A DNA stretch of 64,000 bases from Escherichia phage HX01: the sequence record NC_018855.1. The stretch is one strand, 5' to 3'. The notes beneath the pieces were generated by a model. That model saw only the letters and a program-made list of their open reading frames with translations, was not told the DNA's origin and did not search any database. The position numbers were made by a program, and so were the translations under genes. Below, piece by piece: positions 2,803 through 27,957 of this stretch (position 1 is its first letter; each line of letters opens with the position of its first letter).

Positions 2803-3294
2803 TTATTCCCACCAATCAAGAGCAAGAGTTACTTCGAACGTTTCAATCTCGTTATTCGAATCCCAATCAAGAGATACTTCACCAACGTTAGTAGGCCACA
2901 AGCCGACAATTTCAACTTCTTTAGTGACCGTTTTAGCATCACGAGCAAATTGACGAACGATAGCAGTCTTTTTATATTCAGCAGGTTTACCACCGGTAAT
3001 TTCATTACCTTGTCCTGCTGCAATACCTTGCCAATCAACAAATTTCTGACGAATGCTATGAGCATCATCGTTCATTACTGTAATAGTCCAATCATCGAAT
3101 GTACGATCACCGGCCACGTTAATTTTACGGTTCATATAAGAAACAGGAACCTTTTCAACGATCGCAGCAGGAAGAGCCGTAGCACGACACTGGAAGCTAA
3201 AGTTTTGCCCAAGATAAGAGATTTCTACTTCGAACAGGTTAGGGCGAGCGAAATCACCTGATTCGAAGGCACGAGTTACGTCATCTACAAACAT
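2803..3294 (-). CDS. 19: Tail tube protein gp19
   Basis: 163 aa, same length as T4 gp19; synteny. Confidence 0.9.
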   Translation of the reverse strand: MFVDDVTRAFESGDFARPNLFEVEISYLGQNFSFQCRATALPAAIVEKVPVSYMNRKINVAGDRTFDDWTITVMNDDAHSIRQKFVDWQGIAAGQGNEITGGKPAEYKKTAIVRQFARDAKTVTKEVEIVGLWPTNVGEVSLDWDSNNEIETFEVTLALDWWE

Positions 3295-3366
3295 ATTAGC
3301 CTCTGTAGTAATATGGGCTTAGGATTAACCTGATGCCCATAGAATTAATTTTTAAACGATATAGTA

Positions 3367-3374
3367 TATTTATA
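3367..3374 (-). promoter_or_regulatory. T4-type late promoter (TATAAATA) for gene 19
   Basis: Minus-strand TATAAATA in the 18-19 intergenic region, next to a GGGCTA/TAGCCC hairpin. Confidence 0.6.
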
Positions 3375-3406
3375 TGGGCTACCGAAATAGCCCATCAGGC
3401 GTCTTA

Positions 3407-5389
3407 TTAGCCACTTACAGTACCAATTAGTTCGTCGAAATCGGCACCAGTTGCTGTTGCTACAAAGTTCAACGTAATATAATTTATCGAGCGGGCCGGT
3501 TGTAAGTAGAAAGTAGCTACAAATTCATTACGGTCGATAACTGCTGGGGTGTTATTGGTAGTATCACAAACAACTTTAAAGTTATATACACCACCAAGAG
3601 CTTTAATACCCTGTAGATATTGAGAAGTCTCTGTACGGAAAGAAGAACGGGTAAATGCGTTGTTCAATTCAAACAGGCGATATTTAGATGCTGAACCAAT
3701 GTTCGTTTTAACCATATTGAACAAACGACGAACGTTAATACGGTCAAATGGTGAAGGAACAGAAGTGGCAGTTTTATCACCATACAGAACATACCCGTCA
3801 CCACCGGTACCAGTAACAGGGTTAATAGCTTCCTGATACAAACGATCACGCTGTGGTTGGCGAGTTTCAATTGCAAGCTTAATAACGTTAAGAATTTGTC
3901 CACGATTATAACCGGCAGGAGACATCCAAGGCTGAGAAATATTGTCTGTGCGAGCACAAAGACCGGCGATATCAGCAGCTAACGGAACCCAACGATTCAC
4001 ATCATTATATTTATCATATTGATATTTATAGTTACCGTCAATAGCGGCATAAGTAGAACTTACATTAAAGTTATTATCAGTGTAAGTTCCTGACGCAGTA
4101 CGCCAATCAACCAGATTATCAACTGCACGATTAACAGGAATACCGACTATAGTTGCACGTGGTGGTGAGCAAAGAACCAAGCAATCTTGGCGAGAATCAC
4201 CAATTGCTACAACATGTTTCTGAACTGTAGAAGCAACTTCTAAAGATTCACCTGCACAAGAACCTGCAATAAACAACTGCGCATTAACAGATTCGCGGTC
4301 AGCAAACAAATCCCAAGCTTCCATTAAATCACCAGCGTCAACCGTTTCATTAGATGATAAGCCACCACCCAGTTTGATTACACCAGAGAAACCTTTTGGC
4401 CAACCTTGTGCAGTAGCGAAAATATAATTGCTTGCACCTTTAGCAAAGAAATCATCAATAAAGATATTACTACCATAAATATCGCGTTCACCACGTTTAG
4501 TAGAAAGAATTACGCTCTGAACTACAGCATCGTTACGACGAACGATAATTGCATATTGGTCATCAGTTTGTGGGCCATACCCAAAGATTGCTTTAGCAGT
4601 AGATGCACGAGTACCACCATCAGGATAAATTTTTAACTGGGCTGAAGCACCTTTGTCGTAGTCTGCTTTAGATACGATTTCAATTTCGAGCTGGTCGCCA
4701 AGTTCACCAGGATAAAGAGCAACTACGCCTGGGACACCATATTTTTTAATAGATTCTTGGAAAGTTAGAGAAGTAATAGCTTCTTCAGAAGTTTCAACTT
4801 CAGTTAACAGAATACCCGAATCGGTTACGATAGAACCAATTGTAATAACGCCAGAAAGTCCAGAAGAAGAACTGGCAACTTCGGCGGTCCAGTTAGAACC
4901 CAATGCCGGATATTCATTAATTTCTTTTGCACGAGCAATAATTTTACCGGTTGGGATATAAATGTTAAGAATTTTACCATCGACATCAACTGAAGTGACA
5001 TAACCATCTGCTTCAACAGTTTCGGTCAAATACTTAACGATAATTTTATCACCAACTGCATAGTTACTACCAGCAGCAGAGATTGTGAATTCAATATTGC
5101 CTGCTACAGGAGATGAGTTCTTAGCAGTATCACGGTCAACTGCGCGTACAACACGAAGGTCATTACCATATTGAAGGAAGTTCATAGCAGACATGAAATA
5201 ATCTGCTGTATCCGTATTAGGAGTACCAAACATATCAACTAACGCAACTTCATCAGTGATTTGTTTAATCTGGAATGCAGGTCCCCATTGGAATTTTCCA
5301 GCCAGGGCAGCAGTACCAGTGGAGTTATTAACTACAGTACTCTGTACGGTAGTTTCTTTGAGCTCAACGCCCGGAGAGAGAAGTGCCAT
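3407..5389 (-). CDS. 18: Tail sheath protein gp18
   Basis: 660 aa (T4 gp18 659 aa); synteny. Confidence 0.9.
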   Translation of the reverse strand: MALLSPGVELKETTVQSTVVNNSTGTAALAGKFQWGPAFQIKQITDEVALVDMFGTPNTDTADYFMSAMNFLQYGNDLRVVRAVDRDTAKNSSPVAGNIEFTISAAGSNYAVGDKIIVKYLTETVEADGYVTSVDVDGKILNIYIPTGKIIARAKEINEYPALGSNWTAEVASSSSGLSGVITIGSIVTDSGILLTEVETSEEAITSLTFQESIKKYGVPGVVALYPGELGDQLEIEIVSKADYDKGASAQLKIYPDGGTRASTAKAIFGYGPQTDDQYAIIVRRNDAVVQSVILSTKRGERDIYGSNIFIDDFFAKGASNYIFATAQGWPKGFSGVIKLGGGLSSNETVDAGDLMEAWDLFADRESVNAQLFIAGSCAGESLEVASTVQKHVVAIGDSRQDCLVLCSPPRATIVGIPVNRAVDNLVDWRTASGTYTDNNFNVSSTYAAIDGNYKYQYDKYNDVNRWVPLAADIAGLCARTDNISQPWMSPAGYNRGQILNVIKLAIETRQPQRDRLYQEAINPVTGTGGDGYVLYGDKTATSVPSPFDRINVRRLFNMVKTNIGSASKYRLFELNNAFTRSSFRTETSQYLQGIKALGGVYNFKVVCDTTNNTPAVIDRNEFVATFYLQPARSINYITLNFVATATGADFDELIGTVSG

Positions 5390-23667: not shown

Positions 23668-25401
23668 TTACCCAATATCAATACGAGATCCGTCAACAGT
23701 GTATTGTCCTGAAGCTACTGAGCTCATTGTAGACATTGTTTCCGCCCAATCCCCGGCAACAGTCATATCAACATTACCATTAACAGTCCATTTAACGTTT
23801 CCGTTGACGGTGTAATCATGATTCCCTTCGACCTGAGTTTTAGCATCACCTTTAACAAGAATATCCGCATTTCCGTCAACGACTATTTTGATATTACCCT
23901 TAACGTAAAGAGTTCCATCGCCTTCAACAGTTTTAGATTGGTTACCACGAATAAAGATTGTGTCATTGCCGTCTATTTGATGGAGGCGGTCTGCCATGTT
24001 ATAATATATTTCATTAGCACCAACGTTAACAAGTTTATCACCAGAAATCAAGAAGTTCCCATCGCCATTAGTGATGTCAAAAAGGTCTTCTACAGTTTTA
24101 CGAGTACGACGCCCAGACGGAGAAACTTCCTCATATGACCCTGTTGGATGAACTAAGCGATAACGTTCATTACCTGGAGTATCGTCAAATTCTTGGATAT
24201 GACCGCTTTCCGTTTCCATAGCATGAACGTATGGATACTCACCACGATAACTTGATTCAGGTTCTTTAAAAAGGATACGTGAATCTAACGGAACAGGAGG
24301 ACCAGCTGGGTCTTCTGGATCAGTATTTCTAGTAACTAAATCGGCACCAACTCCTGGTGAAGGTGGTGTTTTAACAGGAACGCCATATGATTCCATGTTA
24401 CCAGTTAAAATAATTGTTGTTACACGTGAAGCACGCCCTTTAGTCTGTTGGAACCATAACGAATCACGCCCAGATTTGTATGCGGTTTTCCAATCACCTG
24501 TGGCCATTGCTTTAAGCATAGTATTGAATTTTGCTACACCGCCGACGCCCATCTGGAAGCACATGTTTTCTAATGCCATTTGGCGAGATCTGTTCATTTT
24601 AGCATAAACAGGACCTACTTTAGAATTAGAACGAATGTCTTTCTGCATCTTAGCAAGGTCCTTCTCAAATAACGCTGTTGCTTCTTCTAATGTAATAGTT
24701 CCCGGATTTCCTGTTACTTCACGCCCTACTTGATCAGATAACAATTTATTAATTCGAGACATATCTCTGGTCTTTTCCATTACGATAAGGTGTCCAATAC
24801 CTACTGTAGGATACCCGAGATGGTCCCAATACACTTTATCACGAAGACCTTCGTCACGACGTAACATTTCTGTTATTGTAAAATTAGGGTCATCATCTTC
24901 TGGAATATTTGCTAAATCTGTATCATCTGGGTTTATACCATAATCCAAGTTGTTATCTTGAATTACGTTAGAGTTTGAATAATAACCAGCTTCACCACCT
25001 TGGTTTAATACGTTCGTATCATTACCTAAACGTCGCGGATACTGGCCTGTCGGGTCTGAAAAACCTTCAAGTCTATTGGGCTTTTCACGTACTATTCCGC
25101 CGTATGTACCAAGTACAATCCCGTTTGTTTTCCATTTGTCTAAGAAATGACCATATACTCGAGTTCCTTCAACAGGACCTGTAACAGAACCACCAATACC
25201 TGACATTGATGCAGACGTAATAGGTTGAATAACAGTCATCCATGGAAGTTTTTCTGTAGGAATACCTTGTACATCACCTTGTGTTCTTTGCGCCGGATGA
25301 AGACCAACGACTCGAACTCGAACTCGCCCTTGTTTTAATGGGTCCATTCTGTCCTCGACAACACCAACGAACCAATTAAGGCTACTGCTAATCATTTCCA
25401 T
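23668..25401 (-). CDS. 5: Baseplate hub / tail lysozyme gp5
   Basis: 577 aa; central lysozyme-like segment (TVGIGHLIV...) and C-terminal VxGxxxxx beta-helix repeats. Confidence 0.9.
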   Translation of the reverse strand: MEMISSSLNWFVGVVEDRMDPLKQGRVRVRVVGLHPAQRTQGDVQGIPTEKLPWMTVIQPITSASMSGIGGSVTGPVEGTRVYGHFLDKWKTNGIVLGTYGGIVREKPNRLEGFSDPTGQYPRRLGNDTNVLNQGGEAGYYSNSNVIQDNNLDYGINPDDTDLANIPEDDDPNFTITEMLRRDEGLRDKVYWDHLGYPTVGIGHLIVMEKTRDMSRINKLLSDQVGREVTGNPGTITLEEATALFEKDLAKMQKDIRSNSKVGPVYAKMNRSRQMALENMCFQMGVGGVAKFNTMLKAMATGDWKTAYKSGRDSLWFQQTKGRASRVTTIILTGNMESYGVPVKTPPSPGVGADLVTRNTDPEDPAGPPVPLDSRILFKEPESSYRGEYPYVHAMETESGHIQEFDDTPGNERYRLVHPTGSYEEVSPSGRRTRKTVEDLFDITNGDGNFLISGDKLVNVGANEIYYNMADRLHQIDGNDTIFIRGNQSKTVEGDGTLYVKGNIKIVVDGNADILVKGDAKTQVEGNHDYTVNGNVKWTVNGNVDMTVAGDWAETMSTMSSVASGQYTVDGSRIDIG

Positions 25402-25976
25402 TATGCAATCTCCATCTCACGAATCAAATCTGTGATAAACGAGTTTATATCTTCTTTTGCAACAATTTTTATTTTACGAAGTTTTTCATTATCTAATACT
25501 GCCGCTTCATAAGTATCTACTGCAGCTAAAGGTCCTTTATATTGTGGATACTTACGTGCTTCATCACCTTTATCGTACCACACTAAAGGCTCGTCCGGAT
25601 ATGAAACCAAATTGTAAAATTTCTCACGATTTTCATTAATATGATAAAGAACTTGGTCGCCGCCGGCATTAGCATATTTCTGAATAGAAGCTTGATACGC
25701 TGCTTCCTGAGATGTAATCCAACCATAATACGGATCATAGTTGTCATTGCACATCAAAAGGACCCAGTATAATTGAGGGTTGCCATAAATTATGTTTGCT
25801 AGTTCTTCAGGACGCGGAGAGCCTTTAATATAATAAGAACGTAATCTATAATTGGCAGCAACACGTTTAAAGTACTCTTTATAGTTACGAAATATGTCTG
25901 TCATAGGAATAGTAGGTGCATTCTTATTAACTGTTTTAGCACTATATCCTATTGGGTCGAAGAATGTAAATAACAA
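25401..25976 (-). CDS. 53: Baseplate wedge protein gp53
   Basis: 191 aa beginning (M)LFTFFDPIGY as T4 gp53; apparent TTG start with AGGAG 7 nt upstream. Confidence 0.85.
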   Translation of the reverse strand: MLFTFFDPIGYSAKTVNKNAPTIPMTDIFRNYKEYFKRVAANYRLRSYYIKGSPRPEELANIIYGNPQLYWVLLMCNDNYDPYYGWITSQEAAYQASIQKYANAGGDQVLYHINENREKFYNLVSYPDEPLVWYDKGDEARKYPQYKGPLAAVDTYEAAVLDNEKLRKIKIVAKEDINSFITDLIREMEIA

Positions 25977-26003: not shown

Positions 26004-26011
26004 TATAAATA
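26004..26011 (+). promoter_or_regulatory. T4-type late promoter (TATAAATA) for gene 4
   Basis: TATAAATA 27 nt upstream of gp4 ATG, followed by AGGAGG. Confidence 0.6.
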
Positions 26012-26018
26012 ATAATAC

Positions 26019-26026
26019 TATTTATA
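26019..26026 (-). promoter_or_regulatory. T4-type late promoter (TATAAATA) for gene 53
   Basis: Minus-strand TATAAATA about 40 nt upstream of gp53 start; divergent from gene 4 promoter. Confidence 0.55.
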
Positions 26027-26037
26027 AGGAGGACAAC

Positions 26038-26487
26038 ATGGCCTACTCTGGTAAATGGGTCCCAAAAAATTTAAAAAAATACCGTGGAGACCATACCAAA
26101 ATAACGTATCGTTCAAACTGGGAAAAATTCTTTTTCGAATGGTTGGATAAAAATCCAGAAATTATTGCATGGGGTAGTGAAACAGCAGTAATTCCATATT
26201 TTTGTAATGCTGAAGGTAAGAAACGTCGATACTATATGGACATATGGATGAAAGATGCATCAGGTCAAGAGTTTTTTGTAGAAATAAAACCAAAGAAAGA
26301 AACTCAACCACCTATTAAGCCTGCAAATCTTACGACTGCAGCAAAGAAACGTTATATGAACGAGATCTACGTGTGGTCTGTGAACTGTGATAAATGGAAA
26401 GCGGCGTCAGCATTAGCGGCTAAAAGAAATATTAAATTCAGAATTCTCACAGAAGACGGTTTACGTCGTTTAGGATATAAGGGATGA
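26038..26487 (+). CDS. 4: Head completion protein gp4
   Basis: MAYSGKWVPKNLKKYRG... 149 aa with AGGAGGA RBS; matches T4 gp4 by recall; ORF-track start 25894 is an upstream extension. Confidence 0.8.
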   Translation: MAYSGKWVPKNLKKYRGDHTKITYRSNWEKFFFEWLDKNPEIIAWGSETAVIPYFCNAEGKKRRYYMDIWMKDASGQEFFVEIKPKKETQPPIKPANLTTAAKKRYMNEIYVWSVNCDKWKAASALAAKRNIKFRILTEDGLRRLGYKG

Positions 26488-26488
26488 T

Positions 26489-27139
26489 ATGTATACTGTA
26501 TATAAAATAACTAACATCGTAAATAATAAAATTTATATAGGTGTTCATAAAACTAATAACCCGGATGATTCTTATAAAGGAACAGGTAAAATTATCTTAA
26601 AAGCCCATGCTAAATACGGATTAGATAATTTTGTAAAAGAAGTATTATATGTGTATGATACCGGTGACGAATTACTAAATGAAGAAATGGCTTTCCAAAA
26701 GGAAGCAGAATTAGTTGATCAATCTTTTGTGGATAGAGAAGATACATATAATATAGACCTAGGAGGAAAGGGAGGACGAGGCCGTTCTATTGATGTGCGA
26801 AAAAGAATAGGCGATTCATCCAGAGGTAGAAAATTAGGTCCTATTTCCGAAGAATCTAAAAAGAAAATGAGTTTAGCTAAGAAGGGTAAGAAATTATCCG
26901 AAGAGCATAAAGCTAAAATAGGTAAAGCAGGCCGAGGCAGGATAATGCCTAAAGAGATTAGAGACAAAATAAAAAATACTCTTACAGGACGAAATAGAAC
27001 TCCTGAAGAAAAGGAAAACATGAGATTAGGATACTTAAATACTCCTAATAAGATATGCCAATACTGCGGTATAGAATGTAAACCTGCGCCTTATAAACGT
27101 TGGCATGGTGATAATTGTAAAATGAGGAAAGTTGAATGA
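26489..27139 (+). mobile_element. GIY-YIG homing endonuclease (Seg-like)
   Basis: N-terminal GIY-YIG module (VYKITNIVNNKIYIGVH), NUMOD3-like lysine-rich repeats, C-terminal Cys/His cluster; inserted between genes 4 and 2. Confidence 0.8.
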
Positions 27140-27957
27140 GCATATTCCAAATTATATCTGAAGGCGTACAAGCCCCTAAGATTGCTCAGTCTATGAATGA
27201 AAGAAAATGGATTGAGATAGGATTAGAATACAAGAAAGCTAAAGAGAAAGGAATCACTGCAAAAGCATTTGCAGAATCAAAAGGAATAAAATACTCGTCG
27301 TTTACATCTGCAATGTCTAGATATGCATCATCTATTAAGACTGCACAGAAAATTGAAACGCTTGAATCTAAACCTAAAAATAAACTCAATAAGCAAGAAC
27401 GTCAACTTCTGATGATAAACTCGTTTCGCAGTTCAATACGAGAAAAGATTAGAAATGAAGGCGCAGCAGTAAACAACAAATCATCTAAGTGGTTTGTTGA
27501 AACAATTAAGAAAAGTGTAAAAGGTCATAAAGTAGTCAAGCCTACGCCAGGCAAAATTTATACTTACGTTTATGATGCTAAACATAAAGATACTCTGCCA
27601 TACTGGGACCAATATCCTTTGATTATTTATTTAGGATTAGGTAAACATAATTTGATGTATGGGTTAAACTTGCACTATATCCCACCTAAAGCACGTCAAC
27701 AGTTTCTTGAAGAATTGCTGAAGCAATATGCTAGCACAACTACTATTACTAATAACACAAAGTTGAAGATAGACTGGAGCAAGGTGAAAGGATTTCAAGG
27801 TGCTGACAAAATGATTAAAGCATACCTGCCAGGCCACATTAGAGGAACAATAACAGAAATAGCTCCTAAAGACTGGGCTAACATAATCATGTTACCTACT
27901 CAGCAGTTTATGTCAAAAGGAAAACGTTTCTCTGCGAATACTGTTTGGAAATCTTAA
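27136..27957 (+). CDS. 2: DNA end-protector protein gp2 (by size and synteny)
   Basis: 273 aa (T4 gp2 274 aa) between gene 4 region and gene 3. Confidence 0.6.

Follow-up and report, generated by a model that had tools for sequence, protein, structure and literature searches.

Between genes 4 and 2 of Escherichia phage HX01 lies an open reading frame (ORF) that is best read, with a probability of about 0.85, as a functional free-standing homing endonuclease gene of the Seg type, which would home into the 4-2 junction of Mosigvirus phages by the mechanism proposed below. The DNA analyzed, here called the window, is a stretch of 64,000 nucleotides (nt) from sequence record NC_018855.1; "HEG" (homing endonuclease gene) is used only for the gene at window 26489-27139 (+), and homologues elsewhere are named by phage. 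The flanks of the window match 678 phage records, the closest being Mosigvirus (Tevenvirinae), and by its sequence the window is that of a T4-like Mosigvirus. The HEG was found in four of these 678 records (three phages: p000v, GADS24, and ChristianSchoenbein), at 100% amino acid (aa) identity, and its product is already labeled "homing endonuclease" in GenBank for all three. The other Mosigvirus records inspected have a span of 1,455 base pairs (bp) with an exact empty site, gp4-TAA-TT-ATG-gp2 (gp4 and gp2 being the products of genes 4 and 2), and in T4 the two genes abut with nothing between them, in agreement with the initial annotation of this stretch. An orthologue is thus far from universal at this position: T4 and the HEG-less Mosigvirus phages are empty, and in other genera occupation is sporadic.

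A recently mobile cassette

The alignment of Mosigvirus loci, four HEG-positive and five HEG-less, extended over 10.1 kilobases (kb), about 4.5 kb on each side of the junction. The mobile unit that emerges is 730 bp long and consists of the HEG together with the last ~80 nt of gene 4. Among the four HEG-positive genomes this cassette has only 1-2 differences (99.7-99.9% identity), whereas divergence in their flanks is 2.4-4.5% (Fisher P 8e-6 to 4e-13 against the cassette), and the backbone nearest to that of the window belongs to an HEG-less phage, JS09, at 0.75% divergence. The HEG cassette has spread horizontally, and recently.

The gene 4 portion of the cassette has a history of its own. 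Comparison of HEG-positive with HEG-less phages gives 25-26 differences in the last 75-78 nt of gene 4, with 25 of them at 26410-26484, against 4/369 in the remainder of the gene (binomial P 4e-11 to 2.5e-34 for the excess). Nearly all of these changes are synonymous (proportion of synonymous differences, pS, 0.83), with just four conservative amino acid replacements, and the tail would therefore come from a deeply diverged gene 4 allele rather than from recent mutation. When the tail (query 26396-26487) was searched against 50,697 phage records, only the four HEG-positive ones matched closely, so that its donor appears to be unsampled. On the other side of the insertion, gene 2 has no differences from its ATG onward in ~400 nt compared with the five HEG-less phages. 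The left end of the shared tract shifts with the genomes compared, lying at roughly 26250-26400, which is the pattern expected of variable co-conversion tracts.

All 26 fixed differences between HEG-positive and HEG-less phages in the 10.1 kb fall at 26406-26486. A homing nuclease must spare the genome that carries it; given these fixed differences, any target within ~4.5 kb should either lie in the 82-nt tract or span the insertion point. The homing site is accordingly predicted to lie within 26406-26487 or to span the insertion point, and the first guess that the target is the 4-2 junction of endonuclease-free relatives is consistent with the data. The predicted geometry would be closer to that of intron endonucleases than to that of the T4 Seg enzymes.

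An intact GIY-YIG nuclease with a distinctive, presumed DNA-binding half

The HEG protein matches the PHROG 314 "homing endonuclease" family at 1.7e-50 over residues 1-211. Both tyrosine motifs of the GIY-YIG module are present (V-Y5-K and I-Y16-I-G18, 10-11 residues apart), and Y5, Y16, G18, Y29, G31, E72, Y87, N88, G92, and G93 are invariant across 42 homologues. A family profile searched against the PDB hits the I-TevI catalytic domain, its columns pairing Y5, Y16, E72, and N88 with I-TevI Y6, Y17, E75, and N90. The AlphaFold model points in the same direction: mean confidence (pLDDT) is 90.9, and 90-96 in the nuclease region, where a beta-beta-alpha-beta-alpha core is predicted (strands 2-9, 15-21, and 48-56; helices 34-43 and 61-75). 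The top three Foldseek matches of this model are I-TevI catalytic domain chains (best 1mk0), at probability 0.98-1.0 and TM-scores, normalized to the target, of 0.53-0.57. The GIY-YIG module proposed in the initial annotation is well supported by these matches, and its catalytic residues are intact.

Against four junction homologues, pairwise nonsynonymous divergence (dN) is 0.22-0.44 with synonymous sites saturated, and the whole protein is therefore under purifying selection. This, together with the intact catalytic residues, shows that the gene is not decayed. Analysis of the sequence thus confirms the ORF as an intact free-standing GIY-YIG homing endonuclease gene of the Seg type.

The remainder of the protein is predicted to bind DNA. 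The NUMOD3-like repeats noted at first reading are detected by Pfam PF07460, marginally (20.7 bits against a cutoff of 20.4, in two stretches), and are visible in the model as five helices (101-111, 121-131, 138-148, 155-165, and 172-184) spaced at ~17 residues; relatives of a second Seg type, type B, described below, score 57 bits for NUMOD3. The C-terminal Cys/His cluster, also noted then, proves to be conserved (C190, C193, H206, and C210). It is modeled as a zinc finger with strands at 188-189 and 196-197 and a helix at 199-205, has a weak profile match to a C2H2 finger of CTCF, and is kept in every aligned member of the 4-2 junction family; T4 SegB and SegC lack it.

The same junction in other genera

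Homologues at the gp4/gp2 junction, with 41-73% amino acid identity to the HEG protein, occur in at least five other genera of Straboviridae, among them Gaprivervirus, Lazarusvirus, Gelderlandvirus, and Pseudotevenvirus, and in four metagenomic contigs (Table 1). In Yersinia phage P8 (65%) and Enterobacter phage RZH (60%), the homologue matches overlap the annotated head completion gene. The insertion had been proposed to be both mobile and specific to one lineage: the mobility stands, while strict lineage-specificity does not, given these homologues at the same junction. Occurrence of the gene is sporadic in every genus examined, and empty sites are found there as well. More distant relatives lie elsewhere: the homologue in Vibrio phage phi-ST2 (37%) is located at regA/62 rather than gp4/gp2, and a scan of IMG/VR with the family alignment returned 80 loci, at no more than 41% identity apart from partial N-terminal matches, none of which (0/80) was flanked by gp4 and gp2.

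In Gaprivervirus and Lazarusvirus the junction may be empty, occupied by a Seg gene of the window type (A), or occupied by another insert. In Kimel, Octan, and Meroveus the other insert belongs to a second Seg lineage (type B), and in phage RZ it is the unrelated nuclease described below. Between phages with 99-100% identical gp2, types A and B share only 44-47% identity. The extent of the exchanged region also varies among genera. In Gaprivervirus the entire gene 4 differs and gene 2 is identical.

Type B has also reached Mosigvirus. Phage ECO111 5-P, with a near-identical Mosigvirus backbone, carries a type-B Seg allele of 240-245 aa at the gp4/gp2 junction (locus L001, 2076-2813). It is ~40-45% identical to the HEG protein, varying by aligner, and 63% identical to the copy in the Salmonella Gelderlandvirus STP4-a; ECO111 5-P is the only Mosigvirus record with this type.

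Phage vB_EcoM_RZ has, at the gp4/gp2 junction and in place of a Seg gene, an unrelated Cys-rich ORF of 242 aa (locus L107, 1598-2326). Its PHROG 681 "endonuclease" match is at 2.5e-29, and there is a weak one to the treble-clef zinc finger of Pfam DUF4379. Phages fPSFA and DK-13 show the same match pattern as RZ.

Gaprivervirus phages and two metagenomic contigs have a second endonuclease gene immediately behind gene 2 and ahead of gene 3. The ORFs of P479 and of contig L100 match PHROG 655 "homing endonuclease" (4.5e-57 and 1.1e-51, respectively), with an additional HNH-type match. With insertions at both 4-2 and 2-3, sites of endonuclease insertion are therefore clustered in the 4-2-3 block.

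From these comparisons, the gp4/gp2 family is to all appearances old and faithful to its site, with Seg A, Seg B, and an unrelated nuclease competing for it across several genera of Straboviridae. A broader proposal, to which we would give slightly less than even odds, is that the junction is an ancient endonuclease arena, in which a Seg subfamily with a C2HC finger, its two lineages coexisting with empty sites and with an unrelated nuclease, cuts beside its own insertion, in the final ~80 bp of gene 4 and unlike the characterized T4 Seg enzymes, and has had its 3' end recruited as the ribosome-binding site of gene 2.

Putative expression signals and accommodation of the insertion

The HEG is fitted closely between its neighbors. 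At the 5' junction, the gene 4 TGA (26485-26487) is followed by a single base (T) and then by the HEG ATG at 26489; at the 3' junction, in the ATGA at 27136-27139, the HEG TGA (27137-27139) overlaps the gene 2 ATG (27136-27138). The initial annotation had described the HEG as translationally coupled on both sides: its account of the geometry holds, the sequence reading TGA-T-ATG and ATGA, and coupling with gene 4 and with gene 2 is what that geometry would suggest.

In empty-site phages, the sequence AAGGGG in the last gp4 codons precedes gene 2 as its putative Shine-Dalgarno sequence; the equivalent AAGGGA of the window is positioned to serve the HEG. In HEG-positive phages the putative gene 2 Shine-Dalgarno is GAGGA (27124-27128), within the terminal K-M-R-K codons of the HEG. 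In alignment, the last ~33 nt of the HEG are identical to those of the type-B gene of ECO111 5-P, which is ~40% divergent upstream, and the AUGAGGAAAG motif of this 3' end recurs in other genera in the comparison of junctions.

By pattern search, the only T4-type late promoter consensus upstream of the 4-HEG-2 block is the TATAAATA at 26004-26011, and no such motif was found inside the HEG. The consensus match makes this a putative late promoter, and the arrangement of the genes suggests that 4, HEG, and 2 are co-transcribed late. Scans for sigma-70 promoters and terminators gave scores at or below shuffle expectation and nothing usable. An RNA hairpin masking the HEG ribosome-binding site was also considered and dropped, its fold z-score (-1.5) not being significant. 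Hairpins that sequester the ribosome-binding site are known for mobE and I-TevI.

Comparison with known systems

How ordinary an element is this? The HEG resembles the T4 Seg family (SegA-G) in being a free-standing GIY-YIG gene between conserved phage genes, sporadic in distribution and with a co-converted flank. The N-terminal ~96 aa of its product are 48% identical to SegB, and the motif set is common to SegB and SegC, the two that were compared directly: Y5, K14, Y16, G18, H20, D27-x-Y-x-G-x-G, E72, Y87-N88, and GG. SegC is among the Seg enzymes with demonstrated activity. The C-terminal halves, however, are unrelated, that of the HEG protein having five NUMOD3-like repeats and a CX2CX12HX3C finger that SegB and SegC lack. 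The insertion site also differs (the T4 4-2 junction is empty), and the T4 enzymes typically cut hundreds of bp away, whereas the predicted target of the HEG is adjacent.

I-TevI shares the catalytic fold (it is the top Foldseek match, with Y6, Y17, E75, and N90 aligned by profile) and the general plan, in which an N-terminal nuclease is combined with a zinc finger and with an extended linker or DNA-binding region that includes a NUMOD3-type helix. Its target is at or near the insertion point, as is probably the case for the HEG. The differences are that I-TevI is encoded in an intron (T4 td), while the HEG is not intronic and has neither a helix-turn-helix module nor an aligned counterpart of R27. 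The fingers also differ: that of I-TevI is Cys4 and lies in the linker, and that of the HEG protein is C-terminal and C2HC, with beta-beta-alpha spacing.

The closest parallels are RB16 ORF187 and the genes of KARL-1, Acj61, STP4-a, and P479, which have the same junction, domain order, and C2HC finger (41-66% amino acid identity). All are annotation-only entries, for which the papers searched gave no name, target, or activity, and the Lazarusvirus copy differs in lacking a foreign gene 4 tail of the Mosigvirus kind. For the wider pattern there are precedents in PMC2988022: SegH and Hef replace mobC and mobE, so that different endonuclease genes occupy one intergenic site in related phages, and co-conversion tracts link the SegG cleavage site to the endonuclease gene. 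The site described here is instead a junction of late structural genes, and its occupants are Seg A, Seg B, and a PHROG 681 nuclease. By site, by its NUMOD3 and C2HC half, and by its predicted adjacent target, the HEG is set apart as a separate, uncharacterized Seg lineage.

Proposed mechanism and alternatives

The mechanism proposed is modeled on the Seg and I-TevI paradigm. The HEG would be transcribed together with its two neighbors, from the putative late promoter ahead of gene 4, and translated from the Shine-Dalgarno sequence embedded in the last gp4 codons. On co-infection, the protein would bind the DNA of an HEG-less relative through its NUMOD3 repeats and C2HC zinc finger, and the GIY-YIG domain would make a double-strand break in or beside the last ~80 bp of gene 4 or at the gp4/gp2 junction. 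Recombinational repair from the HEG-positive genome would then copy in the HEG together with the adjacent gene 4 tail by co-conversion. The HEG-positive genome would itself be immune, because the insertion splits its site and/or the 26 linked substitutions alter it. The insertion should be nearly cost-free, with both flanking reading frames kept and gene 2 given a new ribosome-binding site by the last HEG codons. For Seg endonucleases, homing through double-strand-break repair, along with co-conversion, has been established (PMC2988022); the same review refers to a paper that proved SegB to be a homing endonuclease and describes activity as demonstrated for several Seg enzymes.

Several observations weigh against this reading. 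In the literature searched, endonucleases of the 4-2 junction appear as genome annotations only, without cleavage, expression, or cross data, and promoter scans gave the HEG no promoter motif of its own. A single-sequence phmmer search of the PDB had no match, the family profile being needed to reach I-TevI. The score for Pfam PF19835 (SegE_GIY-YIG) is 21.1 bits, below the cutoff of 25, and PF01541 is unreported; close homologues do exceed the cutoff (precomputed PF19835/PF01541 matches; Kimel 32.8 bits), so that the low score is a matter of sensitivity rather than of non-membership. The I-TevI R27 has no aligned counterpart and sits in an insertion relative to the family profile; in its place is a Seg-type loop, D27-x-Y29-x-G31-(S/T)-G33, that is common to T4 SegB and SegC. 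The test of fixed differences involved five HEG-less genomes and ~4.5 kb per side. The free-standing endonucleases of T4 mostly cleave at a distance of hundreds to thousands of bp from the genes that encode them (PMC2988022), so a target beside the insertion would be atypical. Lastly, comparison of the Lazarusvirus KARL-1, which carries the homologue, with Abraxas reveals an almost clean insertion, the gene 4 tails differing at 1-2 positions per 60 nt. A diverged tail is accordingly no universal companion of the gene but a feature of the Mosigvirus acquisition, and it may record donor ancestry alone.

What else might account for the gene? It could be an old, vertically inherited resident of the 4-2 junction, immobile and lost repeatedly, its sporadic distribution reflecting deletions and ordinary recombination. 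Occupation of the same junction in at least six genera would fit this, as would the divergence of the type-A genes, which roughly tracks that of gp2 (HEG/gp2 identity to the window of 73%/73% for the P0002 contig, 66%/70% for P479, and 53%/63% for KARL-1). Within Mosigvirus, however, this explanation has to accommodate a near-identical cassette on backbones several percent apart, of which the nearest is HEG-less, and a gene 4 tail synonymously saturated against all other Mosigvirus tails, a divergence implying that the tail was imported rather than inherited; the empty sites, moreover, are exact (TAA-TT-ATG), with no deletion scars. On balance it appears improbable. An inactivated relic, retained for the gene 2 ribosome-binding site and because its removal would disturb gp4/gp2 expression, would explain the conservation, between HEG types ~40% divergent, of the final ~33 nt that contain the putative gene 2 Shine-Dalgarno, and could be read into the unaligned arginine and the sub-threshold Pfam score. 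We consider it somewhat less probable still: every residue common to T4 SegB and SegC is intact, dN is far below the synonymous rate across the whole protein, DNA-binding repeats and zinc finger included, the 11 translated junction copies contain no frameshifts or stops, and recent spread of the cassette requires an active nuclease, at least in trans.

Another possibility is that the nuclease is primarily of benefit to the phage, excluding co-infecting relatives or aiding DNA-end processes or packaging, with its own propagation secondary. Marker exclusion of T2 by T4 is a known effect of Seg endonucleases (PMC2988022), and the HEG would share a late operon with the genes for a TnsA-like head completion protein and for a protein that binds DNA ends. 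Some ~97% of sampled Mosigvirus genomes nevertheless do without it, and unrelated nucleases are interchangeable at the same site, a pattern that speaks against a function bound to gp4 or gp2; to exclude competitors is in any case a by-product of homing and not a distinct mechanism. This is the remotest of the three alternatives, and a homing endonuclease gene that is both active and mobile is the reading we prefer.

Significance

General understanding of Seg elements is unchanged by the HEG, which is an element of an ordinary kind. What the analysis adds is a defined 730-bp cassette, a ~80-bp target prediction, and a junction used by several endonucleases across genera. The cassette and the rewritten gene 4 tail explain a local break in identity among Mosigvirus genomes, which matters for phylogenies and for the engineering of therapeutic T4-like phages. 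The narrow prediction (~80 bp) concerns the homing site of an uncharacterized endonuclease, and a junction at which, in several genera, at least three kinds of nuclease replace one another is a convenient natural system for endonuclease competition and turnover. If the tentative idea of an ancient arena is true, it would also be one for studying allele competition and a target specificity that follows a structural gene across genera.

Features of the locus and neighboring genes

Table 1. Features of the HX01 4-2 region (window coordinates) and related insertions in other phages.
Feature	Position	Strand	Remarks
HEG, free-standing, Seg-like GIY-YIG	26489..27139	+	216 aa plus stop
Gene 4, head completion protein, TnsA-like fold	26038..26487	+	149 aa; upstream host gene
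Gene 2, DNA end protector	27136..27957	+	273 aa; downstream host gene
GIY-YIG catalytic domain, aa 1-96	26489..26776	+	Y5, Y16-I-G18, D27-x-Y29-x-G31-x-G33, E72, Y87-N88
NUMOD3-like helical repeats, about five of ~17 aa each, aa 100-185	26786..27043	+	Presumed extended DNA-binding region
C-terminal CX2CX12HX3C zinc finger	27044..27136	+	C190, C193, H206, C210; predicted beta-beta-alpha
Foreign co-converted gene 4 3' tail	26406..26487	+	Travels with HEG; predicted homing site or immunity substitutions
Putative T4-type late promoter, consensus TATAAATA	26004..26011	+	Pattern search; 27 nt upstream of gene 4 ATG
Putative HEG Shine-Dalgarno, AAGGGA	26479..26484	+	Lys-Gly codons at gp4 C-terminus
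3'-terminal ~33 nt of HEG	27107..27139	+	Holds gene 2 GAGGA; putative ribosome-binding site
Gaprivervirus P479 homologue	gp4/gp2 junction		66% identity
Acinetobacter Lazarusvirus KARL-1 homologue	gp4/gp2 junction		51% identity
Gelderlandvirus STP4-a (Salmonella) homologue	gp4/gp2 junction		45% identity
Pseudotevenvirus RB16 homologue	gp4/gp2 junction		41% identity; annotated "putative Seg-like homing endonuclease"
Four metagenomic contigs, homologues	gp4/gp2 junction		73, 64, 62, and 50% identity
Gene 2-3 endonuclease ORFs	P479 (L003) 2969-3628; L100 3993-4655; L101 3978-4586		

The neighboring genes are readily identified: gp4 matches Pfam Tn7_TnsA-like_N (5.8e-20) and PHROG 218 "head closure" (6.5e-60), and gp2 matches PHROG 429 "DNA end protector" (7.6e-81). 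The gene 4 ATG at 26038 is preceded by AAGGAGG, and the gene is annotated from this start (149 aa) in ChristianSchoenbein, GADS24, and p000v. A longer gene 4 ORF of 197 aa, from the ATG at 25894, was rejected as an over-extension, running as it does into gene 53 on the opposite strand (window 25401-25976). GenBank records are split on this point, some having the long form from 25894 and others the 149-aa form, and the start of gene 53 is likewise annotated in two ways (191 aa, from a TTG, or 167 aa); these differing starts are annotation inconsistencies, not biology. The 61-nt gap between genes 53 and 4 contains, in addition to the late-promoter motif listed in Table 1, a second, divergent TATAAATA at 26019-26026 (-), back to back with the first and facing gene 53, for which it may be a late promoter. 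Within the HEG there is an antisense ORF of 100 aa (26719-27021, -). A second copy (paralogue) of the HEG was sought across the 64-kb window and none was found.

The flanks also contain patches of 6-14% divergence among Mosigvirus sequences otherwise 97-100% identical, one in gene 53 (25500-25750) and one in gene 2 (27162-27411). The gene 53 patch groups the window with GADS24, a20, and JS09, against ChristianSchoenbein, p000v, and SF; the patch at the 5' end of gene 2 is unique to p000v. Both look like separate recombination tracts, and that in p000v gene 2 could be the right-hand conversion tract of a different homing event.

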